64,000 nt of DNA from a virus (IMGVR_UViG_3300033233_000034:5000-68999); one strand, 5' to 3'. Shown: positions 3,816 to 58,009, numbered from the stretch's first letter. Made by a program: numbers and translations. The notes: generated from the sequence alone by a model not told the origin.

Positions 3816-5285
3816 ATGGAACGGATAAAACCTAAAATAACAGTTAATAAGGAGCAAAGTTTACAAACCTTGGCTTCTGCACTGGTTTCTCGTGCAAATA
3901 TGGCAGCTTCACTGGGACAACAAACCTATGGTGGTAATCGGGATATATACCAAGCTCTTGGATACCCAATAACAATCACATATGAGGATTATGCTGCCCG
4001 TTATTTACGTCAAGATATGGCTAAGGCTGTTATAGACCGTCCTGCAAAAGCCACATGGCAGGGAGAATTAAATCTACAAGAATCAAAAGTAAAAGAAGAC
4101 TCAGCTTTAGAGACAAAATGGAAACTGCTAAATAAACAACTGAAACTGAAATCAAAGTTTAGTCGTGTAGATCGTCTTTCTGCTATTGGTAGTTATGGTG
4201 TTCTACTCTTAGGTTTAGATGATGTTACGAAACGTGAACATTGGAGTAATCCTGTGACAGTAGGAACAAGGAAATTACTATATGTAAAACCTTTTGGTGA
4301 AGGTTCAGCGAAAATATCCTCATTTGAAACCAATCCAGGTAATCCACGCTTTGGGTTACCCCTGATTTATCAGGTTTCATTATCAGAACCCATATCAGGG
4401 ACTACCACAGGTATTACTTCTACTATGTCATCAGAAACTGTTAATGTTCATTATTCTCGTGTTATTCATATTATAGATGATATTTTAGAAAATGAAGTAG
4501 TTGGTACGCCACGGTTAGAGGCTGTTTTTAATCGTTTAATTGATTTAGAAAAAATAGTTGGTGGTGATGCTGAAATGTTTTGGCGAGGAGCACGTCCTGG
4601 ATTTCAAGGCAAGGTGGATAAGGATTTTCAACTCACCACTTCCGCTAAAGCTGATTTACAGGCACAGATAGATGAATATGAGCATAACCTTCGTAGAATG
4701 TTAGTTAATGAAGGGGTTACTTATGAGGCTTTACAACAAGCTATATCTGATCCTACAAATCACGTTGATATTCAGATACAAATGATTTCTGCTGTTACAG
4801 GTATTCCCAAACGTATTCTCACGGGTACAGAACGTGGGGAATTATCATCAGGACAAGATGCTACGGAATATCGTACCTATGTACAGAATCGTAGAGAAGA
4901 TCATGCTGAAACACATATAGTCCGTCCGTTCGTGGATCGTTGTATTGAAATAGGGGTATTACCTAAACCAAAAGTAGAGGAAGAATATAATGTCGTATGG
5001 AGTGATATATTTGCTATTTCAGAAAAAGAATTAGTGGATGTTGGACGTGCTCGAAGTGAGGCTCTTAGGAATTATACTACATCACCTATGGCGGAAGCAG
5101 TAATACCACCAGAAGCATTCAAGGAATTTTTCTTAGGTTTAAATCCAGATCAAATAGCTTTGATGGAAAATATGGATGCCTCTACCGAAATTCGAGAATC
5201 TATGAGTTTATTTGAGCAACAAAATAATCCTTCAGCAGCAGTCCTTACACGGAAAGCAAAACAACCTATTAAAAAAAGTAGTTAA
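3816..5285 (+). CDS. portal protein (DUF1073-type)
   Basis: Follows terL; 489 aa; ISAVTGIPKRILTG...GELSS motif typical of DUF1073 portals. Confidence 0.9.
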   Translation: MERIKPKITVNKEQSLQTLASALVSRANMAASLGQQTYGGNRDIYQALGYPITITYEDYAARYLRQDMAKAVIDRPAKATWQGELNLQESKVKEDSALETKWKLLNKQLKLKSKFSRVDRLSAIGSYGVLLLGLDDVTKREHWSNPVTVGTRKLLYVKPFGEGSAKISSFETNPGNPRFGLPLIYQVSLSEPISGTTTGITSTMSSETVNVHYSRVIHIIDDILENEVVGTPRLEAVFNRLIDLEKIVGGDAEMFWRGARPGFQGKVDKDFQLTTSAKADLQAQIDEYEHNLRRMLVNEGVTYEALQQAISDPTNHVDIQIQMISAVTGIPKRILTGTERGELSSGQDATEYRTYVQNRREDHAETHIVRPFVDRCIEIGVLPKPKVEEEYNVVWSDIFAISEKELVDVGRARSEALRNYTTSPMAEAVIPPEAFKEFFLGLNPDQIALMENMDASTEIRESMSLFEQQNNPSAAVLTRKAKQPIKKSS

Positions 5286-5288
5286 AAA

Positions 5289-6245
5289 ATGACAGATTAT
5301 ACTACATACGTTCCGATAACATATGCTAAGGCTGTTTTTGATCCTACACATACTACTACTCTGCGAAACGCATTTGCAGCGGAAATGGCTCGTAGGTTTG
5401 CACGCCTGTGTATTGCTATTAAGAACAAAATTGTAGATGATGATTGTTTTGGGCTTAATGAAATTAAATTACAAATCAATATTGGGGAATTTAATTTTCC
5501 TCGTTCTGCTGAGAAGGTACAAGCCTTTATGAAGTGGTTACAGCAACAGGTAGATGAAGGTATTTTAAGCATAAAAGTATATGAACAAGTAGGTGAAGCT
5601 ATTGATCGAGCATGGACAAATTTATACATAGTTGATTCGTATAAAAGGGGCATCATTCGGGCAAGATATGAATTACAAAAAGCGGGTTTTAGTAATATCC
5701 CGAGCATAGAAGCTACTGGTGGAGTTCAGATGTCAATGATGATCCCTGTTCATGCTGATAGATTAGGTTTGTTGTATAGTAGGGCATATACAGACTTAAA
5801 AGGAATTACGGCTGCTATGGATACTCAAATCAGTAGGATACTTGCACAAGGTATAGCTGATGGTGATGGTCCAATGCTTTTAGCAAGGAAACTGGTTAGT
5901 ACCATAAACGGCTCAGGTATGGGAGATTTAGCACTAATCGATAAATTAGGTAGATTTATTCCAGCAGCACGTAGGGCGGAAATACTTGCTCGTACGGAAA
6001 TTATTAGAGCACACCATCAAGCCACAATTCAAGAATATCGTAATTGGGGAGTTTGGGGTGTAAATGTATTAGCGGAAATGGTAACAGCTGGGGATGATAG
6101 GGTTTGTACTATTTGTGAGGAATTAACTCTACATAATCCATATACATTAGATGATGCTATGAACTTAATACCTGTTCATCCACAATGTCGGTGCACCACC
6201 ATACCGTTTGAATTAGGTGTTGATACTTTAATTAAAAAGAATTAA
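5289..6245 (+). CDS. minor head morphogenesis protein (Mu gpF / SPP1 gp7-like)
   Basis: ILARTE, DDRVCTIC and PVHPQCRC motifs. Confidence 0.9.
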   Translation: MTDYTTYVPITYAKAVFDPTHTTTLRNAFAAEMARRFARLCIAIKNKIVDDDCFGLNEIKLQINIGEFNFPRSAEKVQAFMKWLQQQVDEGILSIKVYEQVGEAIDRAWTNLYIVDSYKRGIIRARYELQKAGFSNIPSIEATGGVQMSMMIPVHADRLGLLYSRAYTDLKGITAAMDTQISRILAQGIADGDGPMLLARKLVSTINGSGMGDLALIDKLGRFIPAARRAEILARTEIIRAHHQATIQEYRNWGVWGVNVLAEMVTAGDDRVCTICEELTLHNPYTLDDAMNLIPVHPQCRCTTIPFELGVDTLIKKN

Positions 6246-6246
6246 A

Positions 6247-7677
6247 ATGGAAGATTCAAAATTAGGGATTTTAACCAATTTGAAAATAAGTGGTTATTCT
6301 GTTGAGGAAAAAACTCATCAAGAAAAGAAACATTTGGTAGTCCCAGTCACCATGATAGTAGAAGGAGTTCTAGCGGGTAGCCGTGGACCACTTTTACATC
6401 TTGCAGAAGATTTTGGTAAATTTCCTGCTTCATGGGATGGGATACCAATAGTAATAAATCATCCTGAAAAGGATGGTGTAGCTATATCTGCTAATAATGT
6501 AGAAACGATTGATACAGGACTTGTAGGGCGTGTGTATAATGCTTTTATGGATGGGTCAAAGTTAAAAGCGGAAGCATGGCTTGATCCTGAACGTCTTTCT
6601 GTTATTTCCCCAGATACGTTTAGTGCAATAGGTTTAAAACAAGCGATTGAAGTAAGTGTTGGTGTTTTTACTGAAGAGGAAAAAGAACCCGGCACGTATG
6701 GAGACATAGAATATAATGCGATAGCCAGAAATCATAGACCAGATCATTTAGCTCTTCTGCCCGGCGGAGTTGGTGCTTGTTCTTTGAAAGATGGTTGTGG
6801 TATCAGAGTAAATAATAAGCAATTAAAAAAGAAAGGAGAGAATGATGAGATGAATATACTCACACAGGAACAAATAGGAATTTACAACCAAGTAAAGTAT
6901 ATCTTTCGAGGTATTACTGATAATTCCACAGGGGGATTAAAGGAAAAACTGGAAAATTTGCGAAAATTGGTTGATAGTTTGGATAAACCTTCAGATCAAA
7001 TGGGTAACAATGGAGTTTATAATTCGTTGGAAGAAGCCTATGATACTTATTTGATTTATGAACAATGGATGTCTGGTGGAGGTGATGACAAGTGTTTTAA
7101 GCAAGGTTATCAAATAGATGCTACTGGAGAAGCAACTTTCATTGGAGACCCTATTGAGGTAGAAAAGATTGTTACCTATACCCCAGTGATTCAACAGAAT
7201 CAATTCACAAGAGTAAAAATTAATAAAAATAAAAAAGAAAGTATGGATTGTACCCTATGTGTAAAAGCAAAGGTTGATACATTGATCACTAATGCTATAT
7301 TCACGGAGAATGATCGAACAGAACTAGAAACCCTTTCGGAAAAAGTTTTGGATCGAATGATAACTCCACCAACACCAGCTATTGAAGCTCTATCCGCTGA
7401 AGATAAAGCAGCTTTAGATTTTGGAAAAACTCAAATTAAAGCTCAAAGAGATTCTAAAATAGCTTCTATTACCGCTAACACGGCAGAAGGTGTTTGGACT
7501 CCTGAAGTTCTTGCTAGTATGTCGGAAGATATGCTGGACAGAATTGTAAAAACCCTTCCTAAAAATGAGGAAGCACCAGATTATTCTATGCAGGCAGCCG
7601 GAAGGAGTTTACAAGCTAATGCCATTGGTAAAGTAACCCCTTTATACCCTGCTGGAGTTGAGGTTGAAGGAAAGTAA
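6247..7677 (+). CDS. prohead protease/scaffold (DUF2213-like)
   Basis: IVINHP, VSVG and DHLALL..GACS motifs; position before capsid genes; C-terminal helical region. Confidence 0.8.
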   Translation: MEDSKLGILTNLKISGYSVEEKTHQEKKHLVVPVTMIVEGVLAGSRGPLLHLAEDFGKFPASWDGIPIVINHPEKDGVAISANNVETIDTGLVGRVYNAFMDGSKLKAEAWLDPERLSVISPDTFSAIGLKQAIEVSVGVFTEEEKEPGTYGDIEYNAIARNHRPDHLALLPGGVGACSLKDGCGIRVNNKQLKKKGENDEMNILTQEQIGIYNQVKYIFRGITDNSTGGLKEKLENLRKLVDSLDKPSDQMGNNGVYNSLEEAYDTYLIYEQWMSGGGDDKCFKQGYQIDATGEATFIGDPIEVEKIVTYTPVIQQNQFTRVKINKNKKESMDCTLCVKAKVDTLITNAIFTENDRTELETLSEKVLDRMITPPTPAIEALSAEDKAALDFGKTQIKAQRDSKIASITANTAEGVWTPEVLASMSEDMLDRIVKTLPKNEEAPDYSMQAAGRSLQANAIGKVTPLYPAGVEVEGK

Positions 7678-7707
7678 AAAGAATACTAATTTAAAACAAT
7701 AAAGATT

Positions 7708-8166: not shown

Positions 8167-8190
8167 TTTAAAGAAAGGAGAAAAATACAG

Positions 8191-9300: not shown

Positions 9301-9354
9301 TCTATTTTAAGGGCTAATCATGCCATTAATTTATAATCATTAAATTAATTTATT

Positions 9355-9825
9355 ATGGAACGTATAAAGAAATCAAAAGTAGTAGAGCAAATAGATGAAC
9401 AAGTAGTAGCTACACCTAAAAAAGCTACAATTACTGTAAAAGAAAAAGAGGATGTTCTTGTTCCTGTTTTAAAGAAAGAAATTGAGGAAGAAGTTGAAGT
9501 AACCACAAAGTTATTATGGAAAAAAATCGGTGGGGGTTCACTCCGTTGGAAAAATCAAATAATTAAGCCTAACCAAGAATTTTGGGCTGATCCATCAGAA
9601 TTACCCCGTACTTTTTTACCTTATTTGAAATGTTTAGAGGCTACTAAATTTGAAGAAATAAAGAGTAAAAGAATATTAGAAAAAACAACTCCTGAAGGAC
9701 TGTATACTTTAGTGGAAAAGAAAAAGGGATTGTGGGCAGTCGTAGGAGCTTCTGGAAAAGCAATAAACGAAACTTTACTAAGTAAAGAAGCAGCAATAGA
9801 ATTATCTAATAATCTTAATACTTAA
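9355..9825 (+). CDS. hypothetical protein after the capsid gene (starts MERIK)
   Basis: ORF; K/E-rich N-terminal half. Confidence 0.7.
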   Translation: MERIKKSKVVEQIDEQVVATPKKATITVKEKEDVLVPVLKKEIEEEVEVTTKLLWKKIGGGSLRWKNQIIKPNQEFWADPSELPRTFLPYLKCLEATKFEEIKSKRILEKTTPEGLYTLVEKKKGLWAVVGASGKAINETLLSKEAAIELSNNLNT

Positions 9826-9828
9826 AAT

Positions 9829-12759
9829 ATGAAATGGGTAGTTCCAAGAATATGGGAAGGAGGCACTTGTGTGATTATAGGTGGTGGACCATCTATGCTT
9901 AAACAATTTGATATACCTGTGGAAATTATACAAGGGGTGTATTCAGGAGAATTAAAACCAGCAGCTTACTCCCCATATCTTGACCCCATTCATAATATGC
10001 ACGTGATAGCCGTGAATGTAGCTTATCAAATAGGGGATTGGATTGATGTTTGTTTTTTTGGGGATAATTCAACATGGGATGAAGAAAAAGAGGAATTAGC
10101 AAAGTGGAAGGGATTGAGGGTTACTTGTGCGGAGGAATTAATAGATGACATACGCCTAAAACACCTTGAAAGAAATGGAAAAAAGAGAATGGGGATTTCA
10201 GTCGAACCGAATATGGTTAGTTGGAATAGCAATAGCGGAAGTGCTGCTATTAATCTTGCAGTTCATTTTGGTGTCAAAAAAATAATTCTTTTAGGATTTG
10301 ACATGAAACTTGATGAAGGTAGAAATCAACATTGGCATAAAATATATAAAAAGCAATTAAAAACAAAGGAAACTACATTAAATAGTACGTTTAGAAAGCA
10401 TTTGAATGGTTTTCAACAAATGAAAAAGGATTTGGACACTTTAGGTGTGGAAGTGATTAATTGTAGTCCTGAGAGTAGCATAACAGTATTTCCAAAAATG
10501 AATTTTAAAGACATTAACGTTCTTGATAATCCCGGCAATAATATAAATTTAATTTTTGAGAAAGAACAGGAAGAGATACACTATGATTGGAGGAATAAAA
10601 ATCAAATTAAAAAAATCTGTATAACCACCACCTTTGACAGAAATTATAAAGAAGCCGGAAAAACTTTATTTAATTCAATTAAACGACATACAGATTGCAC
10701 CGGAATAGATTTTAAAATTATCACATCGGACACGGAAGTAGTTAAAGACTTTGGGGAAGAAAATTGTTATTTTATTACTGAGGAAATAAAAAATAGATAC
10801 AGCAATGTTAAATATCACAAAGAATTAACAGTAGAAAAATATGCTTCTTCATGGTATCGTTTTGAAATATTTAATATGACTGAATATGATCGGGTTATTT
10901 GTATTGATTCTGATTGTATTTGTGTAGAGGATATTTCTTATCTATTTAGTGAAGAATTAAATCAGTATGATTTAATATCTGTTGAAGATCATATTGTTTC
11001 TAAATGTTTTGTAAATCTCGTTCCTGAATTAGAAAGAAATGGTTCCCGCCTTAGTAATCTTACCAAACGATTAAAAGAAGGAAAAATAGATATTCAACCA
11101 GCATTATTGGTGGCTAATAAATCTATTGTAAATAAATCTTGGTATGAAAAACTAATTTCTTTTGCAAATATAGTTCCTTTTTCATATTCTATTGATGAGG
11201 GGGTTTTAAATGATTTCATTTATCAAGAAGGTATAAAAATAAAATTATTACCATTAGAATGGGATTTTCAAGATATTTATGAAAAAGTATGTTTAGATTT
11301 ACTCGTTCCTACGAAACCAATCATCATTCATTGTCAAGAATCTAAACCATTTAAGAAGTCAAAAGCACAATTAGAGCCATATTTTCATAAATATCATGAT
11401 TTATGGTGGGAAGAAAATAAATTCAGTGTATTAAGCCAATCAAAAACAATCGTTGTTATTATAGTTTGGAATCGGTTTGAAAATTTAAGAAGATGGATTA
11501 ATTGCTGGAACCAATGTGATACCTCAGAAGCGGAACTTGTGGTTGTTCATAATCAGGAAACAGATAATCATAGGTATTGGCAACTGTGTAGTGATAACGG
11601 TATTAAATATGTATATCGTGAAAATGTTGGTTTTGATATTGGTGCTTTTCAGGATATCTGTAAAGAAAGATTGGCAAATTTTCCAAATGAATGGAATAAC
11701 ATGATTTGGGTTACAGACGATTGTATTCCAATGGCTAAAGATTTTGTTAGTCAGTATTTAAAACAATTAACAGATACTAACACTCCTTGTTATGAGATTT
11801 CAAAGGAGGTTAAAACTCATGTAAGAACTACTGGTTTTTTGATTACTAAGGAGATTGCAAAAAAATTAATATTTCCTAAAGACCCTATTCATAACAGGGA
11901 AGATTGTTATCAATTTGAGCATAAAAGCAAAAATGCTTTATATGAACAACTGATTAGTATGGGTAAACATCCGATAATGGTAAATAAGGATTTAAAAACA
12001 TCTCCATTATGGGATTCTGACGTCCGAGCGTACTTAAATTTAATGAAAAAACATGAAGAAGTATTTGCCCCATTAAAATCTGAAAAAACAGAAGAACAAC
12101 CAATAAGTATTTTGGATGAATTAGCTATAAAATATAAGGCAGATAAAAGTTCAAGATACCATAATTACGCATCTAAATATGATAAAATATTAACTCCTTA
12201 CAAAGACATTTTCACATCTATTCTGGAAATCGGGGTAGCTCAGGGACAATCAGTAAGAATGTGGACAGATTATTTCCCAAAGGCTAAAATTCATGGAGCA
12301 GATATTGATAAGGCTTCTGAAATATGTGAGGCTTTTTCTAATAGAATAAAATTTCATTTACTTGATCAAAGAGATGCTGCTCAACTAAAAAATCTTGAAC
12401 CGTATTCTCCATTCGATTTGATAATAGATGATGGTAATCATTTTTGGATGGAACAAATCCTTACTTTTAAAATTCTTTTTCCTTATGTACGAAAGGGTGG
12501 TATTTATATTATAGAAGATACAACTACTTCATATTGGAAAGAGTATAGAAATCATCCTATTTCAACAATAGAATATTTTAAGACTTTAATAGATGAAATT
12601 AATTTTAAAGGTGAGAAAGCAACTGTACCCCTAAATCCCCCTGAAGAATTTGGAGATTGGGAAAAGGGATGGCATTGTAGAGAGGATTGTCATACAACAG
12701 TCCCTTTATTTGAGTCAATTCAATTTATGAATGGTTTTATTGTAATATACAAAAGATGA
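9829..12759 (+). CDS. four-domain glycan-modifying enzyme: Maf/MptE-like transferase + GT8-like + GT2-like + class I SAM O-methyltransferase
   Basis: IIGGGPS...NSGSAAINLA...ILLGFDM; YDRVICIDSD, DEGVLN, SKPF; RENVGFDIGAF, WVTDD; LEIGVAQGQS, DLIIDDGNH, GGIYIIED. Confidence 0.8.
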   Translation: MKWVVPRIWEGGTCVIIGGGPSMLKQFDIPVEIIQGVYSGELKPAAYSPYLDPIHNMHVIAVNVAYQIGDWIDVCFFGDNSTWDEEKEELAKWKGLRVTCAEELIDDIRLKHLERNGKKRMGISVEPNMVSWNSNSGSAAINLAVHFGVKKIILLGFDMKLDEGRNQHWHKIYKKQLKTKETTLNSTFRKHLNGFQQMKKDLDTLGVEVINCSPESSITVFPKMNFKDINVLDNPGNNINLIFEKEQEEIHYDWRNKNQIKKICITTTFDRNYKEAGKTLFNSIKRHTDCTGIDFKIITSDTEVVKDFGEENCYFITEEIKNRYSNVKYHKELTVEKYASSWYRFEIFNMTEYDRVICIDSDCICVEDISYLFSEELNQYDLISVEDHIVSKCFVNLVPELERNGSRLSNLTKRLKEGKIDIQPALLVANKSIVNKSWYEKLISFANIVPFSYSIDEGVLNDFIYQEGIKIKLLPLEWDFQDIYEKVCLDLLVPTKPIIIHCQESKPFKKSKAQLEPYFHKYHDLWWEENKFSVLSQSKTIVVIIVWNRFENLRRWINCWNQCDTSEAELVVVHNQETDNHRYWQLCSDNGIKYVYRENVGFDIGAFQDICKERLANFPNEWNNMIWVTDDCIPMAKDFVSQYLKQLTDTNTPCYEISKEVKTHVRTTGFLITKEIAKKLIFPKDPIHNREDCYQFEHKSKNALYEQLISMGKHPIMVNKDLKTSPLWDSDVRAYLNLMKKHEEVFAPLKSEKTEEQPISILDELAIKYKADKSSRYHNYASKYDKILTPYKDIFTSILEIGVAQGQSVRMWTDYFPKAKIHGADIDKASEICEAFSNRIKFHLLDQRDAAQLKNLEPYSPFDLIIDDGNHFWMEQILTFKILFPYVRKGGIYIIEDTTTSYWKEYRNHPISTIEYFKTLIDEINFKGEKATVPLNPPEEFGDWEKGWHCREDCHTTVPLFESIQFMNGFIVIYKR

Positions 12760-13676: not shown

Positions 13677-13677
13677 T

Positions 13678-14913: not shown

Positions 14914-14917
14914 AATT

Positions 14918-16305: not shown

Positions 16306-16309
16306 TATT

Positions 16310-36934: not shown

Positions 36935-37813
36935 TCATACTTCAAGTGCTTTGTAAATAATTTCCATTGTTTTCTCACGTATTTGGTTTTCTTTCTTAAA
37001 CGTTTCCAAATTTTCCTCGAAAGAAAGAGTCCCTACAAAATCATCGTTTAGTCTGCTAATAAAAGCATCAATCTTATTATCACGTTCTGCTTTACCATCT
37101 AAATGGTCACGGGTAACAACATCTTCCTCAATAGGCAGGTAAACAAGTTCTACGGTATTAGTATCTGCAAACCACAGGTAAACCCGTGGACGAAAATCTA
37201 CTTGATCTGCTGACTGTCGAGTAATACAACCGGGATTTACAAGTACTCTCCCTTGATATTCTTCTACAAACGGAATATGGTTATGTCCTGTAAGTATTAG
37301 GTCATAATCCTTGTATTTCCTTAGTATTCCCCCGGCTTTCATATCCGTACATCCCGGCCAAGGTTCTTTACCTTGGTAGTTCATCACGTGCCAAACAAGT
37401 ATATCTCTATCTTGATACCACCAAGAATTTTTAGAAGGGATTTGCCCCCAATGACAACCATCATAAATATCCAATTTATTTGCTTTTTCTAAAGCGTAAA
37501 TACCACACTTATTTGCTAACTCAAGACTATGTTGTGGTAAATCATGATTCCCAAAAATAGTAAAAAATCTATTTGGTAAATACTGCATAGCCATAGAAAG
37601 TAACCATGGGGAAGGTTTCCAATGGTTAAATAGATCACCGGAATGTAGCACTGGACAATCATGGTTCTTTTGTAAATAGGAAATAAATTGGACTTTTTTC
37701 CATTGAACAGCCTGAAAATCATCAGTGCGGCAAGTAGGAGTATCTTCACGTAAGTGCCAGTCACCCGTAAGTATAGCAGAAGCTTGTTTGAATATTTTTT
37801 TAGTCCTTTCCAT
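36935..37813 (-). CDS. SbcD/Mre11-like metallophosphoesterase nuclease
   Basis: GDWH, GDLF, GNHD, GHNH, NPG motifs. Confidence 0.92.
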   Translation of the reverse strand: MERTKKIFKQASAILTGDWHLREDTPTCRTDDFQAVQWKKVQFISYLQKNHDCPVLHSGDLFNHWKPSPWLLSMAMQYLPNRFFTIFGNHDLPQHSLELANKCGIYALEKANKLDIYDGCHWGQIPSKNSWWYQDRDILVWHVMNYQGKEPWPGCTDMKAGGILRKYKDYDLILTGHNHIPFVEEYQGRVLVNPGCITRQSADQVDFRPRVYLWFADTNTVELVYLPIEEDVVTRDHLDGKAERDNKIDAFISRLNDDFVGTLSFEENLETFKKENQIREKTMEIIYKALEV

Positions 37814-39697: not shown

Positions 39698-40300
39698 TTA
39701 CTTCATTTTAAATAGTTTTAATGCTGGACTTTCTTTCATAGCCAAATGATGAATACTAAGACTATCCGCTACCGCTTCGTCTATATATTTGGTTCCTGTA
39801 GGTTTCCAATTTGGATATATTATTTTCATTTTTTGTACCATTTCTAATTTTTCCCCAGTAGATTTATTTAATGAATGGCGTTTAGAATCGTTTTCGCTAT
39901 ACCACTCAATCCCAATCTCCAAAGCATTAGAAATAGTTTCTAAAATACCCATACAAATACCGATCATAACGGCTGCCGAAGCAGATTGACTACCATGTGG
40001 TAATTCTGAAACGATGTACTCGATATTATGTTTTTTAACCTGACTTAATAACCGTTCATTGATTTCCCGTATTCTGCGAATAGTGTCATCACCTTTCCTA
40101 ACTCTGAGTTTCTTACCACCTGATTCAGTTTTAATACAACCAGTTTCAAGTATCTTACCATCCTGATTAAGCACGGAATACCCCCAAGCACAAATACTAG
40201 GATCATTAGCAAGGATAGTAATTTGTTTAGTAGGGACTACTTGTTTAGAATAAACCATATCCTCTTTCCAAATTACCGTATTTTTAATTCTTTCCATCAT
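39698..40300 (-). CDS. ruvC: RuvC-like Holliday junction resolvase
   Basis: ILANDPS...WG, IVSELP, EAVADSL acidic catalytic motifs. Confidence 0.78.
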   Translation of the reverse strand: MMERIKNTVIWKEDMVYSKQVVPTKQITILANDPSICAWGYSVLNQDGKILETGCIKTESGGKKLRVRKGDDTIRRIREINERLLSQVKKHNIEYIVSELPHGSQSASAAVMIGICMGILETISNALEIGIEWYSENDSKRHSLNKSTGEKLEMVQKMKIIYPNWKPTGTKYIDEAVADSLSIHHLAMKESPALKLFKMK

Positions 40301-41853: not shown

Positions 41854-42914
41854 TTTCTCTTTTTCCTATCTCTTTCTTTTGTAAATTTACTTTCTATTTC
41901 TTCCCAAAGATCAATAACTTCGTTTTTTAAATAACCATCCCATTGTTTTTCTTCAATCATAGAAATAGCTTTATCTAACGAATTACTCAATTCAACTCCT
42001 CTACAAGTATAAGTTGTATTTTTGGTAAAATCTTTAATATATTGTAGTTCATCTCGAATAGAATCTATACCATAATCAAAAATTATTGATACAGGGGCAC
42101 TACGGTAAGGTTTCCAGATACTCGATTTAAATACATCAATTAACACTTCTACGCCTATACAACGCTTTACTTCTTTACCGACTACCTTTTGCTTATCCCA
42201 AATCTTTTCGGGTTTTGTAAAGCGTAATCGTAGGCTGCTATAAAAACCTATGGCCTCACCACCGGGAGTAATATACTTTTGACCGTAAGGACCAGCATCC
42301 ATATTTACCCTTACCTGATTACTACAAACCATCAAGTAGTTATTTTTTACTAAAGTACGTGCAGATTTCCTAAGTTCCTCACTAAATTCCTTTGCTCTAC
42401 GCATACCCATTTTATCACCATCCTTGTTATCCATTTCCATTTTAGTAGAAAGGGCTGCAAGAGAATCTGCAAAAATACCGTTAATAAGTTTCTTTTTAAA
42501 AGATTTTGGCTCCCATGCACTAATAGTTGTGAATAGATCAGTAACAGTATCAGGACGGGAATATTCAGAATCACTTAAATCCAAACCAAACATACTGGCA
42601 AATTGTTTATTCAATCGGGCTTCTGGATCGGCAAACATAATTTCCCCCCCTTGTCTTTGCACAGCACCTGCGATTTCTGATAATAAGACGGTTTTTCCAC
42701 TACCACTTGGTCCGAAAGCTTCGACGAGTATTCCTCCAGGTAAACCCCCGCCACGCACTCTTCCTCCACTAATGGCAAGGTCAAGCAGTGTACTTCCAGT
42801 GCTAATAATTGTACCGAAGTCTCCATCGTATTCTTTCTTTTCACTTATCGTTGGTTTTAAAGATTTACGTACCATTTGGGCACTTAAAGATTCTTCTGGT
42901 TTTATTCGTTCCAT
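41850..42914 (-). CDS. recA: RecA/UvsX-like recombinase
   Basis: ISTGSTLLDLA, Walker A GPSGSGKT, ADSLAAL, NQVR, TPGGEAIGFYSSLR. Confidence 0.93.
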   Translation of the reverse strand: MERIKPEESLSAQMVRKSLKPTISEKKEYDGDFGTIISTGSTLLDLAISGGRVRGGGLPGGILVEAFGPSGSGKTVLLSEIAGAVQRQGGEIMFADPEARLNKQFASMFGLDLSDSEYSRPDTVTDLFTTISAWEPKSFKKKLINGIFADSLAALSTKMEMDNKDGDKMGMRRAKEFSEELRKSARTLVKNNYLMVCSNQVRVNMDAGPYGQKYITPGGEAIGFYSSLRLRFTKPEKIWDKQKVVGKEVKRCIGVEVLIDVFKSSIWKPYRSAPVSIIFDYGIDSIRDELQYIKDFTKNTTYTCRGVELSNSLDKAISMIEEKQWDGYLKNEVIDLWEEIESKFTKERDRKKRK

Positions 42915-42980: not shown

Positions 42981-44378
42981 CTACTTTTTACTATTCTTTT
43001 TCTTTAGGGTATTACATTCATCCCAAAGATCACAAGAATCACATTCATCAAACTTATCAACATCTTTCCCAAATATATGATCGGAAGGACACTTATCATC
43101 AGCCGTAGCTTTTTTAGCTGGAACTTTAGTTGATTTTTTTACAGGTTTTTCATCATCATCATCATCATCTACCGGAGCAACTTTTTTACTTTTCTTAGCT
43201 GGTTTAACACCTGTACCCATACAATCCTCACAAACACCGCCCTCAGAATCTTTACCAGAACCTTCACAAGTTAAGCAACGAGTTTCAAAAGGAATAGTAG
43301 CTATTTTAATTATAGATTTAGACATACCTGTTACACCTAATGAGTAAGCGACATCAATTTGTAAACTTTTAGTAAACCCAATGTAATCATCAGGGTCAAG
43401 TTCGATTTCTTTTAAAACAATGAATTTCTTTAATTCTTTAGCTGACATCATTTTGATAGTATCCCAAGTAATATTATCAGCTTCATCCTCATCATCATCT
43501 ACCGGAGCAACTTTCTTTTTCCTTACAGGAGCGGGATCATCATTATCCTCCTCTACCTTTTGTACTTTTTTACGTACTGGTTTTTCATCCTCATCAATAT
43601 CATCTACTTCTTCTTCTTCTTCAATTTCAAAGAATTTATGCTCCATTTGCTCATAAGTAAGTACGTTTAGGATTTCATCCAATCGAGGGGTTTCATCAGC
43701 TACGGAAAGTTTGTAAGGTTTATCCCTTTCAACAGATATAATTTTAGTAGCTTCTGCAAATGGTTTACTATTACCAATAACTTTTCCTGTAAAACGCACT
43801 TTCAGTGTTTCACCTTCTTCCAAATCCATAAAGACTTCTGATACTGATTCTTCTTCAATTTCATCGTTCAATAGCTTTTGAAACATAGCTTTTGATACAT
43901 CAAAAATATGCCATTTTCCGGCATCATGCTTCGGACTATCCAAAGGATTTACAATGTAAAGATAACGATCACTGGCACTCATAGATTTTAATTCATCTTT
44001 ATCCGCACCAGCTTTTGCTCGTTTAGCTCTTTCCTCACAAATAGGACATTTCTTACCAAAAGTTGCTAAACAAACCACCGTATCCCCAGTACCTGCACCT
44101 ACGTTACGATGCACTTTAAATGGGAATCGCCACCAGTAACTATCCTTAATGGCTATTCCGGCTTTTTCATCTTTCTCAGGATGATTATTACTTGTAACTA
44201 AATACGGTGCAAAATCTAAAAGGTAGTTTTTACCTTTATCTGCACTTACTTCGGGAGAAAATACTGATACACCATTTGGTAATTTTAAATACCCATAACT
44301 GGATGCTTTAGCTTTGTCGGTTTTAACCGCTTGTGATACTTTTCCCCTAAAACTACTCTTCGATGTTTTCTTTGCCAT
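42981..44378 (-). CDS. single-stranded DNA-binding protein (gp32-like) with acidic linker and Cys-rich domains
   Basis: HRNVG..VC..FGKKCPICE core; next to recA and a UvsY-like gene. Confidence 0.72.
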   Translation of the reverse strand: MAKKTSKSSFRGKVSQAVKTDKAKASSYGYLKLPNGVSVFSPEVSADKGKNYLLDFAPYLVTSNNHPEKDEKAGIAIKDSYWWRFPFKVHRNVGAGTGDTVVCLATFGKKCPICEERAKRAKAGADKDELKSMSASDRYLYIVNPLDSPKHDAGKWHIFDVSKAMFQKLLNDEIEEESVSEVFMDLEEGETLKVRFTGKVIGNSKPFAEATKIISVERDKPYKLSVADETPRLDEILNVLTYEQMEHKFFEIEEEEEVDDIDEDEKPVRKKVQKVEEDNDDPAPVRKKKVAPVDDDEDEADNITWDTIKMMSAKELKKFIVLKEIELDPDDYIGFTKSLQIDVAYSLGVTGMSKSIIKIATIPFETRCLTCEGSGKDSEGGVCEDCMGTGVKPAKKSKKVAPVDDDDDDEKPVKKSTKVPAKKATADDKCPSDHIFGKDVDKFDECDSCDLWDECNTLKKKNSKK

Positions 44379-44528: not shown

Positions 44529-45044
44529 TCATTCTTCTTTCATTTTACGTGTACGTTGTAATTCACTAAAACCTTTGCTTACTTTTTCATCCACTTTCTT
44601 TTCTTGTTCTCGCTTTTCCCAGTCACGATTAATCTGATAAGGAACTGTTGGTCCAGAGAAGTACTGCTGCCCATAAAGCCGTACAAGATTTTCCAGTGCT
44701 GATTTACGATGCTCAAAAGCATTTACGGCAGCTTGTGCCATTTCTGCTTCATACTTAGAATTTAGATAAGCTGTATAAGCCTCCTGATAACCATCCTCTT
44801 TTAGAATAGCATTGGCTACTACGGTTTCTGTCACTTTCTCAATACCATATTTTTCAGGATTACTTCTTATACTTTTATCAGCTTCAGCTTTAGCAATATC
44901 TAAATTCTGCTTCGCTTCCTCCAGACGTTTTTTCATTTTAGCCGAATGCCTACCATACTTTAGGCAAAAGGAGGGTTGTGCTAACCATTCTTGGTCAAGG
45001 GCTTCACCATCAATTTCAATGTCCTGTTCATAATTTAATGCCAT
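44529..45044 (-). CDS. UvsY-like recombination mediator
   Basis: Helical; KVTETVV..., AFEHRKSAL; synteny with SSB and RecA. Confidence 0.6.
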   Translation of the reverse strand: MALNYEQDIEIDGEALDQEWLAQPSFCLKYGRHSAKMKKRLEEAKQNLDIAKAEADKSIRSNPEKYGIEKVTETVVANAILKEDGYQEAYTAYLNSKYEAEMAQAAVNAFEHRKSALENLVRLYGQQYFSGPTVPYQINRDWEKREQEKKVDEKVSKGFSELQRTRKMKEE

Positions 45045-46063: not shown

Positions 46064-46615
46064 TTTGGTATAATGGTTATTTTAAAGTTTCTAATTTGTC
46101 TTATTTGCTCAACTCTAGAACTAAGGTCAATAAAATCTATATCAATCGAAGTTATAGTTATATTATGCTTTTCCTGAAATTCTGTTAGTGGTTGATTAAT
46201 TAATAACTTACAATGTTCTTGTAATCGTGCTAAATCTACTCCGAAAGATGGTTTACTCATGATCTTATTATTAAAGTTTGTAGTGCTTGCATAATTACTA
46301 ATTGATTATTAAGTATTATGAGTTCTATTGTAGAACAACGGTCTTCAGCTACTCTTATATTTGTAAGTTTAATTCTTTCTTCTAAAATTGCTACATCATC
46401 ACTCATTTTGTTCGTTTTATTCTTGTTAAACATTTTCTCTTACATCTCATAACCCCTTGCAATGCCCAACCTTGTTGTCCCATGTAACATGGTGGACTAA
46501 CACCATAGCAAGAATCTGTCCTACCTTTAACCAGTGTATAAATAAATCCGTTGATAAAAATGTCTTTTGTTTCTCTTTCTGGTTTTAATTTTTTCTTTTG
46601 TAGCGGTTTTTCCAT
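46060..46615 (-). CDS. small hypothetical ORFs (46060-46260, 46403-46615)
   Basis: Co-oriented ORFs in the operon. Confidence 0.5.
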
Positions 46616-46629
46616 ACTTTAGAATTTAG

Positions 46630-48422: not shown

Positions 48423-48426
48423 AGAA

Positions 48427-49792: not shown

Positions 49793-49803
49793 AATAAGTT
49801 AGT

Positions 49804-51033
49804 TTAAAAAGGTAATTCAATAACACTTCGTTGTAATTTAGCAAGCCTGTATTCAAATATAGAATCGTATGCACAGTATTTCAGTAACTTTTCCTTACCA
49901 CCGGGAAGTTTTAAAAGTTCATCTATCCGATTCAGGGAGTTACTATTCTTTTCTTCTTTGGCTTTCAGGTAAGGTTCTATATCAGAAGAGTAATCTACTT
50001 TACCGAACTGAACGTATACCTGAAACTTTAAACCCGTTACCCCCGGACGATTGTCTAATAAATGTGTTGCCTGCATAGTATCCCATTTCCAATTTTTAAC
50101 TTCTGTATTACCTAATCGGACGATTGACCAAGTATCTTCAAACTTCATATTTTGGGCAATCTTTCCTATCCGTTCGTTACTAAGTAAATCTTTAAAAGGT
50201 TGAACATCTCTTTTTCGTTCGGGGATCATAAAGGAATAAACATGATCCGTGGAAGTAGCAACCGAAGCACAAATAATCCTGTGACCTTCAGCGTGTGGTT
50301 TAAGCCCAGTCGTCTCAAAATCAAATGCTATTTCACCTTGTCGATAAGTATTTAAAACAGGTAATAAATCATCAGTAAGGTATTCTATCCGTGGTTCCTG
50401 ATACAATGGAAACTTTTCTTTCAGTTTAAGTAAGGCTTCCTTAATATCTAAATCCCAAATACTTTGCACCTCAGCACCCTTAGCACGCTCGACCTGATCA
50501 GGCTCGAAGATCGGACAAAGCCAAGCCTTGTAATCCTGATCGGGTATCCGCCATCCTCTCCACTTATCTATACCTCCCAAATCACGTTTCCATCGGTGTC
50601 CTATAAGGCTATAAACCGCAGAGTGTCCTAATAGGAAAATTAACTTTGGTTTATGTGTTTCTATGGTTTTAAGAACGGTTTTACGACAACAATCAATTTC
50701 ATAATTCGTAGGGTCACGGTCTTCAGCATCTTCATCCGTTACACGGCAAAGGCATGAATTTATTAATAAACAATCTTTAAGTAAATCTATACCATGATTC
50801 TCGAAAGTGCGTTTCAGGAGTTTACCAGCTTTACTTTGGAAATATAGGTTATACTTATCATCCTGTTCCGTAGGGGACGATCCTAAAATCATAATCCGTT
50901 TACCGAAATTACCTTGTGGTTTCATCTTCGGTGACTTACAATTTTTATACCCTCCGCACGATATACAGGAAAGTATTTTCCCATCAGGACGGGTTTTGGA
51001 TTCTGTTTCTTGTTTATTAAAAAATCCGGTCAT
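49804..51033 (-). CDS. family 4 UDG-like domain fused to PolA 3'-5' exonuclease (N-terminal part of the split polymerase)
   Basis: Fe-S cysteines CISC..C; ExoI DFETTG, ExoII NMKFE, ExoIII YCAYD; likely start 51033 (ATGA overlap). Confidence 0.9.
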   Translation of the reverse strand: MTGFFNKQETESKTRPDGKILSCISCGGYKNCKSPKMKPQGNFGKRIMILGSSPTEQDDKYNLYFQSKAGKLLKRTFENHGIDLLKDCLLINSCLCRVTDEDAEDRDPTNYEIDCCRKTVLKTIETHKPKLIFLLGHSAVYSLIGHRWKRDLGGIDKWRGWRIPDQDYKAWLCPIFEPDQVERAKGAEVQSIWDLDIKEALLKLKEKFPLYQEPRIEYLTDDLLPVLNTYRQGEIAFDFETTGLKPHAEGHRIICASVATSTDHVYSFMIPERKRDVQPFKDLLSNERIGKIAQNMKFEDTWSIVRLGNTEVKNWKWDTMQATHLLDNRPGVTGLKFQVYVQFGKVDYSSDIEPYLKAKEEKNSNSLNRIDELLKLPGGKEKLLKYCAYDSIFEYRLAKLQRSVIELPF

Positions 51034-52043
51034 TTCGTACCTTTTACTACCGTAATAAATTCCCAACCCTCACCCACGAATTTTAGTATCTTACCGTTAA
51101 ACGAACAAGTTAGCACGGTGCTAAGTATGTTTTTAAGCAACGAGGGAATAATATTAAATTCTAATCGTTCCCCTTCATACTTTACATTACTTTCCTCGCT
51201 GAACCAACCCGTATTTGATTGTGAAGCTATTTTAATACGGTTTTTTTCCAGACATACGGCTACATCCTCATTTATGGAAGTACCTTCAACCTTTTTAAAT
51301 ACTGAAGCACGTTCCAGGATTTCATTGATAGTTCGTGGGAAAGTTATTTCCTTACCATCCTCGATGTTTAGAATACCTGTTGTTTCAGGAAAAGTATCCT
51401 CCAGAATACGACAAGATAGTACCGTGCCGGCTTCAGTTTGAAAATGCACCCAACCCTCACCCATAGCCATTTTAATTGGAATAAGTTTTAATACCGTAGT
51501 TACTGAATGTGCTGGGATCAGGAAAGTAGGTACGTTCAGTTTTTTAGATAGAGTTGTTCTCATAATCCTGTACCCGTCCGACCCTTCAATAAAACCTTTT
51601 TGATTTACGTGTACACAAGTCAAGACGGGTTTCGAGTTATCAGTACCAGTACTATACATTGCCATACGCATGGCCGTAAGAAAGTCCTCTGGTAGGGTTT
51701 TCCATTTTTCTATCGTTCCGACCTCTTCTAAAGGTAGCTTTATTTCCGATTGTAGCGTTAAACCGACCCTCACACGCCCTGCGGTTAATAGTACCTCCGT
51801 CTCGGTTAATTCGACGTTTATATCGTCTTGTTTTAGCTTCTTTAGGATTAGGTATAATTCCGTAGCCTGAACTGCTCCGGTGATTTCCAAATCCTCCACT
51901 GGGTGGCTGATACTGATTTCATCGTTGTAGGTCACTACACGATTCTCCATAAAAGCAAACGATGTACTTTGCTCTATTATTTCTTTCGATGCTAAACCTG
52001 GTTTTACGATTTCGAGTGCTTTCAACAATTCCTCTTTTTTCAT
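51030..52043 (-). CDS. DNA sliding clamp (beta/DnaN-like)
   Basis: 337 aa; KPVLTCVHV, GSDGYRI, CRILEDTFP. Confidence 0.82.
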   Translation of the reverse strand: MKKEELLKALEIVKPGLASKEIIEQSTSFAFMENRVVTYNDEISISHPVEDLEITGAVQATELYLILKKLKQDDINVELTETEVLLTAGRVRVGLTLQSEIKLPLEEVGTIEKWKTLPEDFLTAMRMAMYSTGTDNSKPVLTCVHVNQKGFIEGSDGYRIMRTTLSKKLNVPTFLIPAHSVTTVLKLIPIKMAMGEGWVHFQTEAGTVLSCRILEDTFPETTGILNIEDGKEITFPRTINEILERASVFKKVEGTSINEDVAVCLEKNRIKIASQSNTGWFSEESNVKYEGERLEFNIIPSLLKNILSTVLTCSFNGKILKFVGEGWEFITVVKGTK

Positions 52044-52052
52044 TTTAAATAT

Positions 52053-52451: not shown

Positions 52452-52452
52452 A

Positions 52453-53535: not shown

Positions 53536-53538
53536 ACA

Positions 53539-54123: not shown

Positions 54124-54469
54124 AACACTTAAAATTTGATTAATGATTAAAAAATAAAACAAAACTAAATTGATCAATTCTTATTATCTATTTCTAAATC
54201 CTAAAAACTAATCTATTATAAGAATAATTTTTTTAGTATTTGGGTTTCAAGGGATTTATTTTTACTTCAATACGTAATTTATATTTGGTCTAAATAAGTA
54301 GATTATGTTATTTCCGTTAAAGTTTGATTTATAAGTTCTATTTGATCTTCAAAACCTTGATCTGATCTATCCCATTCCCCTTGTAAAGCCATTTCTGCAT
54401 CCGTCCTAAGAGTATTTAAGACTTCTACACATTTTAGTAATTTTTCTAATTCTGTCATACTAATTAAAT

Positions 54470-55720: not shown

Positions 55721-55730
55721 TGTTTAAAAG

Positions 55731-56627
55731 TTAGTAAGAACCTGTTTGATAAGGAACCATGTCTTTGTTAAACCAATCCTGATACTCTTCGTTCCAAGTA
55801 TATGTTCGACCCATGTAATCCTTTTTAGGTTTATGTAGGATTTCTTCTTTTTGTTTATCAAAATCTATAACTCTTTTCATACCCTTTGCATCATTCATCC
55901 ATTTGTAACCGTTTAACCAAGAGGAGGGATTTGCTATATATTGGGGATCTTTCCATTGTTCGGAATCTATATGTTCTGATAAGGCTAATCTAATATCTCG
56001 CCATAATGGTTTGTCTTTTTTATTGCATAGTTTAATCCAAGCTGACTTGGCAGTACCTTTATTTACTTTTTTAGGATACCTTTGCCAAAATTTATCAAAT
56101 AAGTCTATGGTAATATATCCGTTTACATGATTATTAATTAATGAAGAAATAGGTGATGTAGCTATATCTAAATCTATTATATTAGTCTTATTATATATAG
56201 TATTAATATTATTATTAGCCTCTATTATTGTTTTAATAGGGGGATTCGATTTATTTAATACCCCTTTGTTTAGTTTTTTGTACCTTTCTTTTATCATAGA
56301 ATCATAAATCATAGGGTATTTTGGATTTACAAAAATATGTCTAACATCAAAATTAAATTTATTTTTTTGAGTAATAACTGTAATGTATTTAAGTTTTAAA
56401 AGGTTACTTACGCTATTTGTTATTGTTTGATTTTTAACTTCTAATTTTTCAGCTAACCAAGCATTAGAAGCAAAACAACCATCTTCTGACGCAGATAAAA
56501 TTTTAATAAATCCAAAAAGTATTTTTTCAGTATTTGTTAATTCAGGATTAAATAATACCTCTGCGGGAATGTATATTCCGGGCAAACCCCATTCCTGTTT
56601 TTTATTAATTATTCTACTATTATCCAT
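55731..56627 (-). CDS. replication initiator-like HTH protein
   Basis: CFASNAWLAEKL winged HTH; FDKFWQRYPKK...NPSSWLN C-terminal domain. Confidence 0.8.
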   Translation of the reverse strand: MDNSRIINKKQEWGLPGIYIPAEVLFNPELTNTEKILFGFIKILSASEDGCFASNAWLAEKLEVKNQTITNSVSNLLKLKYITVITQKNKFNFDVRHIFVNPKYPMIYDSMIKERYKKLNKGVLNKSNPPIKTIIEANNNINTIYNKTNIIDLDIATSPISSLINNHVNGYITIDLFDKFWQRYPKKVNKGTAKSAWIKLCNKKDKPLWRDIRLALSEHIDSEQWKDPQYIANPSSWLNGYKWMNDAKGMKRVIDFDKQKEEILHKPKKDYMGRTYTWNEEYQDWFNKDMVPYQTGSY

Positions 56628-56914
56628 GATTCTAAGGGTTTTAATATTTTAAAAAAATAAGGGTTTAATGTTTTATTTGGGAAATATTGAACGTATCCTT
56701 TATCTATTAATTCATTTAAACCATTTTCCCATATAGAATCTATTTCTTTTTCACTACTAAAAAATAGTAAATGAGCATCAGAAATATTAATTTCCATATC
56801 AAGAGCATTTTGTATAAATAAATAAATACCTCTTGCTTTATAAGAAATTTTAGGATTTTCATTATGCCGAACACCATGTTTAGGTATTTTTTCTTTGCTT
56901 TTAATTCTTTCCAT
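56609..56914 (-). CDS. small HTH-like protein (starts MERIK)
   Basis: ISYKARGIY...GLNELIDKGYV. Confidence 0.6.
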   Translation of the reverse strand: MERIKSKEKIPKHGVRHNENPKISYKARGIYLFIQNALDMEINISDAHLLFFSSEKEIDSIWENGLNELIDKGYVQYFPNKTLNPYFFKILKPLESWIIVE

Positions 56915-56933
56915 AACAAAATAGTATTAAAAA

Positions 56934-57057
56934 TTAAATGCCCCTGAACAAAAGAAACCCCAACAAAATAGCCTCTACTCTATTAAGCTGGGGAAGTCTT
57001 TTGCCAAGGGCAAAAATATAAGAACTTTGTAAATTGTTACTTTTCATTTTGTAGAGG
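56934..57057 (-). promoter_or_regulatory. structured leader: long stem-loop, pseudoknot and 37-aa uORF
   Basis: Inverted repeat 56939-57012; loop GUAGAGG complementary to CCUCUAC at 57051-57057; uORF 57047-56934. Confidence 0.7.
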
Positions 57058-57158
57058 ATTTAAAATCAGAAAGTAAAGATAAATATAATAATTTAGACTA
57101 AAAAATACAAACCAATTTATTTTTAATAAATTTTATAAATCGCTGAGAATCAGGTTAT

Positions 57159-58009
57159 TTAATTTTTTTTAACTCGGGTCATTTCTTGTACAGGTTTAAC
57201 CCTTGTCATTTGTACAGGTTCTACATAAGGTTTCCACCCCCAAAACCGTACAAACACAGGTTCAGTCAATCCATCTACCCAAACCCCCATATCTCCATTT
57301 CTACGGCTTTGTCGGTTTGGCCTATCAACTATACTATGTATGCTACCGGGTACTATTTCTTTAGCATCTCGTTTGTAAATATCATCATAGCATGATGCTA
57401 ATACTATACGAATTAGCTTACCATATTGTATATGGGTAGTTTTATCAATCGGCTGGGATTTCATCTTGTAGTATAAAAATTAATTTCCTACTTAAACAAT
57501 CATTTGGTAATTTGGAACATAAAATAGCATCAAATTCTGCCACGCACCCTTTACATCGACAAGGAATATCTTGTAGGGCATCAGTAAAAGTATAAGTTTT
57601 ACCTTCTATTACAAATAAATGTTTCATTTTTTACACATATTTTTTAAAAATTCAAATAAATCCATCATAATCATAATTATTATTAAAATAGCTAAAAAAG
57701 CTGTTATTTCTTTATTAGAAGAAGGTTGATTGGGATATATAGCATTTGCTATAAATAATCCTGCAAAAATAATAGCTGTTCTCATAATTTTACAATATTA
57801 AGTACTTTACCACAACGCATACAAATACCTTTTCTATCGAGTAAATGTCCATACTTACACCAGCACCAGAATTTAAAGAAACGACTTTTTTGTGCTGAAA
57901 CTTGAGGGTCAACTTCAGGTTCCATTTCAGAAATTACAAATATTTTATGTAATTCCATTAATTCTTTTAATTTATCTTCCCATTCAGAATTGTCAAATAT
58001 ACTTTTCAT
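57159..58009 (-). CDS. small hypothetical ORFs (57159-57464, 57445-57627, 57782-58009)
   Basis: Co-oriented ORFs; two are Cys-rich. Confidence 0.55.

Follow-up and report, generated by a model that had tools for sequence, protein, structure and literature searches.

A conserved terminal pentapeptide motif on the recombination and packaging proteins of an uncultured phage clade

Phage proteins of unrelated folds encoded by one uncultured virus (IMGVR_UViG_3300033233_000034) share a short peptide motif, hereafter the tag, at or near their ends. The window, that is, the whole stretch of DNA that was analysed, comprises 64,000 nucleotides (bases 5000-68999) of a 94%-complete IMG/VR virus record of 68,999 bp. 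An earlier note on this DNA had proposed a phage-wide short linear peptide, conserved at the protein level and not a DNA repeat; this is borne out, and the tag extends well beyond this genome. We find that the tag is a conserved protein-level terminal motif, not a DNA repeat or a translation element, and that it marks the recombination and packaging sets of proteins, not the replisome or the virion shell. Its general form is hydrophobic-x-Arg-[Thr/Ile/Val]-[Lys/Arg], a short linear motif of chain ends that vary and are presumably flexible, and it has been kept for a long time on these two sets in an uncultured phage clade. The recombination carriers are the RecA/UvsX-like recombinase, a UvsY-like protein, SbcD and RuvC and, in this genome, also RadC and a GIY-YIG nuclease. 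The packaging carriers are the small terminase TerS, the large terminase TerL and the portal, together with a small protein encoded after the capsid gene and the linker of a protease-scaffold open reading frame (ORF). Among the three functions suggested in the earlier note, a docking signal for a hub protein would fit these observations best.

A regular-expression scan of all ORFs recovered every start that had been reported, at the same coordinates. MERIK stands at residue 1 of the products of ORFs 3816-5285(+), 9355-9825(+), 41850-42914(-) and 56609-56914(-) and at residue 2 (MMERIK) of ORF 39698-40300(-), and MERTK stands at residue 1 of ORF 36935-37813(-). The first of these is the portal (PF06381, E 9.6e-33), with its tag (ATG GAA CGG ATA AAA) at 3816..3830 on the + strand, and the second is a 156-residue protein of no known family encoded after the capsid gene (tag at 9355..9369, +), whose orthologues start MERIR, MIRKN, MKRVE or MKRTK. 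On the - strand, the tag is carried by the RecA/UvsX-like recombinase (PF00154, E 6.6e-34; tag at 42900..42914), by the RuvC-like resolvase (phrog_159, E 4.1e-18, while a Pfam RuvC match at E 0.0069 fails its cut-off; MMERIK at 40283..40300, with orthologues starting MKRTK or MKRTN) and by the SbcD-like nuclease (PF00149, E 2.1e-10), where MERTK (37799..37813) sits on an extension of about 12 residues ahead of the DxH motif. That the tag lies on an extension ahead of the conserved domain, as proposed earlier, holds for both SbcD and RuvC. The last carrier is a 101-residue protein (56609-56914(-), tag at 56900..56914) that had been labelled a helix-turn-helix protein; the label fails, with no Pfam or PHROG family found for it. 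Just beyond the window edge, the RadC gene starts MKRIK. The six tags in the window use the Arg codons CGG, CGT, AGG, AGA, CGA and AGA, differing as the note had described, and the DNA upstream of the six starts shows no likeness.

Related forms lie near other chain ends. The pattern x-T-R-[VI]-[KR] occurs 7 times in the proteome versus 0.89 expected (P 0.0005), five of these within 20 residues of a chain end (0.18 expected), and the first residue is hydrophobic (L, F, I or M) in 6/7 matches. Similarly, the C-terminal 20-residue zones of this genome hold 6 motif matches against 0.48 expected. TerL has LTRVR at residues 10-14 (2280..2294, +), and TerL of some relatives starts M-x-R-T-K. Two copies that the earlier note had counted among these forms are present, only not at the very end of the chain: MYRVK of the GIY-YIG/NUMOD3 endonuclease (PF01541; 41032..41046, -) stands 10 residues before the end, and FTRVK of the protease-scaffold ORF (7204..7218, +) is internal, at residues 320-324 of 476. 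A 70-residue protein ends LTRIK (46415..46429, -) followed by RTK and the stop, and in one relative the orthologue carries the motif N-terminally, as MERTR, instead of at the C-terminus. Finally, ORF 57159-57464 (101 residues) ends in two MTRVK copies (57168..57209, -) within a tandem duplication of about 27 nt (57168-57227(-)). CCTGTACAA and GTTAAA are the same in both halves of this duplication, and the intervening Thr/Arg codons of the two copies differ synonymously only (ACA-AGG versus ACC-CGA), as had been noted.

Such starts could in principle reflect chance, base composition or wrong gene starts, given that the genomes are AT-rich, Lys, Ile and Glu are common at N-termini and the starts were called mechanically. 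The comparison with a shuffled null suggested in the earlier note speaks clearly against this. Among the 92 ORF products of at least 60 residues in the whole 68,999-bp record, MERIK stands at residue 1 in 4, against a mean of 0.023 in 20,000 column shuffles that keep the per-position composition. None of the 20,000 shuffles reached 4, and any 5-mer at all reached four copies in a fraction of only 0.0001 of them. Starts of the form M-x-R-[TSI]-[KR] are found on 6/112 ORFs here and on 0/90 in the AT-rich control, a single unrelated phage (Staphylococcus phage K, first 50 kb, GC 29.4%). The motif is also conserved in 119 + 119 + 108 homologues from an independent protein collection. As for wrong gene starts, portal and SbcD have no alternative start codon between the tag and the conserved core, so that the true start cannot lie downstream of the tag, an outcome the earlier note had allowed for. 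Taken as a whole, the chance reading has a negligible probability and is refuted for practical purposes.

The conservation reaches across a clade. In IMG/VR, 45 loci hold portal relatives (47-63% identity) and 20 hold RecA relatives (53-81%), most of which begin MERTK, MKRTK, MERTR, MERSR or MIRSK. The 119 portal and 119 SbcD homologue clusters drawn from a collection of 5.8 billion proteins give the consensus M-[EKQ]-R-T-K. In the portals, Glu at residue 2 is found in 72, Arg at residue 3 in 94, and Thr at residue 4 and Lys at residue 5 in 56 each; in the SbcDs, residue 2 is Lys in 43, Glu in 28 and Gln in 28, followed by Arg 3 in 104, Thr 4 in 89 and Lys 5 in 69. That is, Arg 3 is fixed in 79-87% of these homologues, the residues at positions 4 and 5 are fixed in 47-75%, and position 2 varies freely. 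The motif lies within the first 20 residues of 66/119 portals (5.8 when shuffled) and 83/119 SbcDs (8.8 when shuffled), beginning exactly at residue 1 in 63 of the 66 and 76 of the 83. In an alignment of 12 RecA sequences, M1 and R3 are invariant. What follows the tag is far less regular: from the tag to the first conserved helix the portal linker measures 7-24 residues, and the SbcD DxH motif starts anywhere between residues 9 and 35. SbcD homologues with DxH at residues 15-18 have R3 in 73/74 cases, compared with 1/6 of the homologues without the extension. The tag is, in short, five residues with few fixed positions in variable-length, poorly conserved segments outside the folded domains, and it recurs in at least eight families of unrelated folds.

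The tag can also stand at a C-terminus or in a linker. The UvsY-like protein (171 residues), with LQRTR in its C-terminal tail (44547..44561, -), is conserved and its gene adjoins that of the clamp loader; relatives carry Pfam UvsY (PF11056 in 2/108 of its sequence homologues), and neighbouring Atlas clusters hold 17% and 42% UvsY members. In 56/108 of the homologues the pattern [MLIFV]-x-R-x-[KR] falls in the last 14 residues (11.8 when shuffled), and 18/108 end exactly with it. In the protease-scaffold ORFs, an inserted [LIMF]-x-R-[TSV]-K is present in 8/25 aligned sequences; where this genome has FTRVK, the aligned residues of relatives read [LIM]-[KEV]-R-[TS]-K, and position 1 is hydrophobic (L, I, M or F) in 8/8 of these linker copies. 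The C-terminal UvsY-like copies and the linker copies, which lack Met, show that the tag is not tied to a start codon. Furthermore, position 1 is hydrophobic in non-initiator copies, and we therefore take the initiator Met to supply the hydrophobic residue at N-termini. As a separate observation on the protease-scaffold ORF (6247-7677(+)), the linker motif is followed, at a distance of about 10 residues, by a Met that is conserved in the 25 aligned sequences (..KIMAE, ..TMADE, ..KMERT, in residues ~320-345), which suggests a nested, separately initiated scaffold protein.

Codon use places the conservation at the protein level. Across 66 distinct instances of the tag, Arg is encoded by AGA 18 times, AGG 10, CGA 19, CGT 12, CGG 6 and CGC once, all four Thr codons are used, and Ser is encoded by both AGT and TCN. 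The use of both Arg codon families and of all Thr codons means that what is conserved is the peptide. Thr, Lys and Glu codon use in tags equals genome-wide use, and portal residue 3 is Arg in 94 and Lys in 6 homologues, although Lys is twice as common as Arg in these proteomes. CGA at codon 3 is the only skew (19/66 versus 8.5 expected in the clade, P 0.004).

This pattern bears on one of the functions put forward in the earlier note, a nascent-peptide or translation element, which now looks unlikely. In such a case, start-site choice or yield would be set at initiation or early elongation by codons 1 to 5, or by the pentapeptide as it emerges, in a host that does without Shine-Dalgarno (SD) pairing. 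The host is likely to belong to the Bacteroidia. The genomes have no SD sequences, SD-like motifs preceding 6/72 to 13/72 genes (only 6/72 here), and A is enriched at -3 and -11 to -14 upstream of gene starts in the six genomes. An upstream A pattern without SD is a signature of Bacteroidia, reported for Flavobacterium johnsoniae in passages of PMC6847099. The nearest cellular ThyX genes are from records of Bacteroidales, Parabacteroides and Lutibacter, with other phyla interspersed. Further in favour of a translation element, the motif begins at residue 1 in nearly all N-terminal cases, codon 3 shows the CGA excess, and the residue 2 codons are N-A-A or A-T-A. Against it stand the conserved motif at the UvsY-like C-terminus and in the linker without Met, the free variation of synonymous sites and of both Arg codon families, and strongly expressed structural genes that lack the tag. 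Nor does the coding pattern look favoured in Bacteroidia. In 151 genomes, the DNA pattern ATGRAAMGNACNAAR gave 363 matches, or about 2.4 per genome, similar in magnitude to the backwards-read control columns (columns not summed) and showing no over-use, so that the host itself does not favour such starts; the set includes the unpublished genome G104, with one match, and the conclusion is independent of it. All in all, a translation element is very unlikely.

Several other readings at the DNA or RNA level were tried and dropped. Tagged genes might have been first in their operons or on leaderless mRNAs, but the upstream gap is somewhat larger in tagged genes (median 49 versus 4 nt) at P 0.04 for the strict motif only, the loose motif is not significant, and many relatives' tagged genes overlap the upstream gene. 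A promoter inside the tag (GGAAC, like an extracytoplasmic-function (ECF) -35 box, within ATG-GAA-CGN) was set aside, since the ATG and the frame are conserved and GGAAC, judged by eye, occurs in 3/6 tags only. GAAAG might also have paired with the 16S tail in an SD-like manner, but the CGN and MKR forms no longer allow this. The Bacteroidetes -7 box TANNTTTG was uninformative (118 matches versus 96.5 expected, with 3/100 shuffles as high).

Which proteins carry the tag is as telling as its sequence. Families were scored for hydrophobic-x-R-x-[KR] at most 12 residues from an end, using annotation-blind ORF clusters from six whole genomes and 65 loci. In the recombination set, the motif is terminal in RecA (12/20), RuvC (6/10), SbcD (8/14) and, at the C-terminus, the UvsY-like protein (9/17); in the packaging set, it is terminal in portal (18/36), TerS (8/16) and TerL (4/18), with the post-capsid protein at 5/14. 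By the same scoring the count is zero for capsid (0/14), decoration protein (0/22), clamp loader (0/16), the N-terminal half of SbcC (0/15), polymerase (0/10) and exonuclease (0/10), as well as for each of six tail families (0/7 or 0/6), and low for the clamp (1/10) and a candidate single-stranded DNA-binding protein (SSB; 1/18). In this genome alone, 8/22 DNA-transaction proteins and 0/16 virion structural proteins are tagged (Fisher P 0.012), a contrast that counts the portal as DNA-handling and would weaken if it were counted as structural.

We favour, at somewhat less than an even chance, a tag that acts as a docking peptide to one shared partner. Positions 1, 3 and 5 are the best conserved and position 2 the least, which fits an extended peptide docking by one face (an inferred i/i+2/i+4 face). 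At residues 1, 3 and 5, the hydrophobic anchor, the Arg and the Lys would dock into an acidic pocket on the surface of the partner. Docking could then tether the carriers to one place, namely the branched concatemeric DNA under resolution and packaging. The most likely partner would be a phage gp32-like SSB, or DNA coated by it, and a second candidate would be DNA itself.

The candidate reader is encoded at 42981..44378 on the - strand, between the UvsY-like gene and RecA. It is conserved, measures 341-494 residues among relatives, and has an invariant H-x12-C-x7-C-x2-C motif and a basic N-terminus in which K/R is followed by S/T (KKRKSS-like). Compared with T4 gp32, BLASTP gives E 0.006 over the zinc-ligand region, with a co-linear core, and hhalign gives E 0.0016 over 162 columns at a probability of only 16%. 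The protein further contains a very long low-complexity region of acidic runs alternating with P-V-R-K-K-like basic blocks, and its C-terminal end is a conserved Cys-rich mini-domain (KCP-x-GH-x-FG ... C-x2-C-x-WD-x-C). According to passages of PMC12893549, residues 3-7 of T4 gp32 (KRKST, the LAST motif) bind the core of a neighbouring gp32 on single-stranded DNA (ssDNA), the acidic C-domain is where other proteins of replication, recombination and repair bind, and T4 phage with Arg-to-Ser and Arg-to-Tyr substitutions at residue 4 has been studied. Passages of PMC3012670 describe an association of the T4 resolvase gp49 with the portal and genetic evidence that ties the T4 terminase gp17 to gp32. 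That this gp32-like protein is the shared partner strikes us as a possibility of rather low probability. The fullest form of the proposal, in which a terminal LAST-like pentapeptide, convergent on at least eight unrelated families, docks recombination and packaging proteins on the gp32-like SSB, is unlikely. Were it true, the tag would mimic the peptide by which SSB molecules bind each other, and SSB-coated DNA would physically link the repair, resolution and packaging of concatemers. The sliding clamp was also considered as a hub and rejected on sequence grounds, the motif not being hydrophobic. The exonuclease ORF ends ...IELPF, resembling a clamp-binding end, and the clamp more likely reads this end.

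The peptide might instead bind nucleic acid directly, as an arm (a minor-groove Arg or a backbone clamp) that raises affinity for the AT-rich phage DNA with no protein partner. The carriers of known function are almost all DNA-handling proteins, and further K, R, H, N and P residues follow the tag. Its composition is also like that of the gp32 LAST residues, which line the ssDNA trough in the gp32 core according to passages of PMC12893549. A plain DNA-binding arm, on the other hand, does not account well for Glu as the commonest portal residue 2 (72/119), an acidic residue that works against DNA binding, or for a hydrophobic position 1 that is kept in non-initiator copies (8/8 in the linker; 6/7 among x-T-R-[VI]-[KR] forms). 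The Arg is fixed at one register, rather than lying in a loose K-rich patch, and the polymerase, clamp loader, primase and N-terminal half of SbcC go untagged. We consider an arm of this type possible, if improbable.

Another of the functions raised in the earlier note was a degradation or processing signal, read by a host ClpX/Lon-type protease or the phage prohead protease. Such a tag would time the removal of its carriers or label them for the prohead, much as the T4 capsid targeting sequence (CTS) does. The position at extreme N- or C-termini agrees with known terminal degrons, portal and scaffold are prohead components, and one copy lies at the protease-scaffold junction, about 10 residues before the putative nested scaffold start Met. 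This sits badly with the many carriers (TerS, TerL, RecA, SbcD and RuvC) that act outside the capsid, and it is hard to see why the recombination and packaging proteins should all be degraded as one set. Nor is the tag known to match the established N- and C-motifs of ClpX, which also counts against a degron. We regard a degradation or processing signal as distinctly unlikely.

Returning to docking, a reader and its peptides might be expected to vary together. Within one genome, tags of different families do tend to agree: MERIK here and, in other genomes, MKRTK throughout, MIR-x-K, or Arg at position 5. Fully matching tag pairs number 11 versus 2.7 expected (P 0.0001, genomes permuted within each family). 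As this genome was chosen for its tag agreement, the test was repeated without it. Position 2 tracks GC content by eye, so co-evolution with a reader is taken as suggestive only. A search for a reader gene lost in the relative G004, whose SbcD and RuvC lack the tag, was not fruitful, as no G000 gene was absent only there and present in the four others. The G004 portal and RecA share V-I-R-G, and its portal still fits hydrophobic-x-R-x-[KR].

A number of points weigh against docking on a shared partner. Without the discovery genome, only position 2 remains significant in the matching test (24 versus 14.6, P 0.005), and all three variable positions together give 5 versus 2.2 (P 0.06). C-terminal copies outside the UvsY-like family are enriched in this genome only. 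The residue-1 register could mean that a free N-terminus matters for a reason unrelated to docking. At the codon level, the CGA excess leaves room for some pressure at starts, and the position 2 residues (E, K, Q, I) all have N-A-A or A-T-A codons, which also fits RNA-level or mutational bias. With regard to the SSB in particular, the gp32 assignment is weak: the candidate has no Pfam match, and a PDB sequence search with its alignment gave low-complexity matches only. In addition, the portal, the scaffold linker and the post-capsid protein are not obvious SSB clients.

The tagged genes sit in a genome of two halves. The + strand half is a packaging, head and tail module, in which family searches identified TerS, TerL, the portal, a minor head protein, the protease-scaffold ORF, a decoration protein and the capsid. 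The - strand half is a replication and recombination module. Its recombination genes encode split SbcC halves around SbcD, the RuvC-like resolvase, the GIY-YIG endonuclease and the RecA/UvsX-like recombinase; its replication genes encode a clamp loader, a family-A polymerase, ThyX, a uracil-DNA-glycosylase-exonuclease fusion, a clamp, a C5 methylase, a DnaB-like helicase, a primase and a sigma-70-type factor. No tRNA genes were found. No cultured relative emerged either: a blastn search of a phage collection gave no match, and the best portal, RecA and SbcD tblastn matches there all fall below 35% identity.

Some features of this gene order deserve mention in their own right. SbcC/Rad50 appears to be split into an N-terminal ATPase half (356 residues) and a C-terminal half (204 residues) on separate ORFs. 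The halves and SbcD lie at 35796-36410(-), 36935-37813(-) and 37993-39063(-), with SbcD and three small ORFs between the halves and a gap of 179 nt from the SbcC N-half to SbcD, and this arrangement is kept in relatives. The family-A polymerase is likewise split, over 46630-48054(-) and 49804-51066(-): the polymerase domain is one ORF, and a 3'-5' exonuclease fused to a uracil-DNA-glycosylase-superfamily domain is a separate ORF five genes away. Within the structural module, a 976-residue protein with sialyltransferase-like and methyltransferase parts (9829-12759(+)) and a sulfotransferase-like protein (15607-16305(+)) are both kept in all five whole relatives. Directly after the capsid stop there is a hairpin (9311-9325(+)), found at the same site in five related genomes, whose stems compensate between genomes (GGC/GCC, AGAC/GTCT, CAC/GTG, TCAC/GTGA, TTCAC/GTGAA) around a conserved loop, (C)TAATCA, followed by a T-run. 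It resembles a terminator whose loop is conserved and might bind a protein. Over the gene starts of all six genomes, most virion structural genes open with M-A and most replication genes with M-K.

Short docking peptides organise DNA repair in eukaryotes and are barely charted in phages. Here, one pentapeptide marks proteins that make, repair, resolve and package concatemeric DNA, in a clade that is both large and uncultured (>1,600 SbcD and >1,900 portal relatives in public data). If the tag is indeed an address, it would allow the members of a phage DNA-processing complex to be listed from sequence alone and provide a handle for sending tagged cargo to the DNA-processing site. It would also make it possible to test concretely whether recombination, resolution and packaging are physically coupled, as has long been proposed for T4. 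Were it a degron or a DNA arm instead, it would still be a new and easily mutated control point common to a dozen genes.

Literature searches, including one on short linear motifs in bacteriophages, found no description of such a tag, and the peptide strings matched only the human kinase MERTK and author names. Close analogies in logic include hub systems, such as clamp-binding motifs and the acidic tails of SSB, in which unrelated DNA enzymes are recruited to one DNA-bound hub by a short peptide. Hub-peptide motifs come and go in flexible ends during evolution. The tag is similar in being one short terminal or linker peptide on many unrelated DNA enzymes; it differs in that clamp motifs are hydrophobic (QL-x-LF-like) and in that, in SSB-tail systems, the peptide sits on the hub and not on the clients.

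Among phage systems, the T4 CTS offers one parallel; it is removed by the prohead protease. As described in passages of PMC3012670, it is a short N-terminal address peptide common to unrelated, fast-evolving phage proteins. The tag, too, is a short N-terminal peptide on otherwise unrelated phage proteins. CTS carriers, however, are packaged head proteins, whereas the carriers here are mostly terminase and recombination enzymes: TerS, TerL, RecA, SbcD, RuvC, the UvsY-like protein and RadC are not internal head proteins, and the prohead carriers are limited to the portal and the scaffold linker. Moreover, the tag can be C-terminal, and the two sequences are unrelated.

The T4 gp32 LAST motif is another parallel, being a basic Lys/Arg and Ser/Thr pentapeptide at the extreme N-terminus of a phage DNA-metabolism protein, and the phage described here encodes a gp32-like candidate with a LAST-like N-terminus. 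LAST has been described on gp32 itself, for gp32-gp32 binding, whereas the tag occurs on eight or more other families, terminase and portal among them. The tag also differs in its order (x-R-T-K with a hydrophobic first residue) and in that it can be C-terminal. In composition, (Lys/Arg)3(Ser/Thr)2, MKRTKS and MKRTKT fit and MERIK does not. Lastly, the Kozak-like, SD-independent starts of Bacteroidia described in passages of PMC6847099 show the same upstream A pattern as these phages; they are upstream RNA sequence, whereas the tag is a peptide that can also be C-terminal. Altogether, the tag resembles known address and hub peptides in logic and differs from them in sequence, in the set of its carriers and in its use of either end of the chain.

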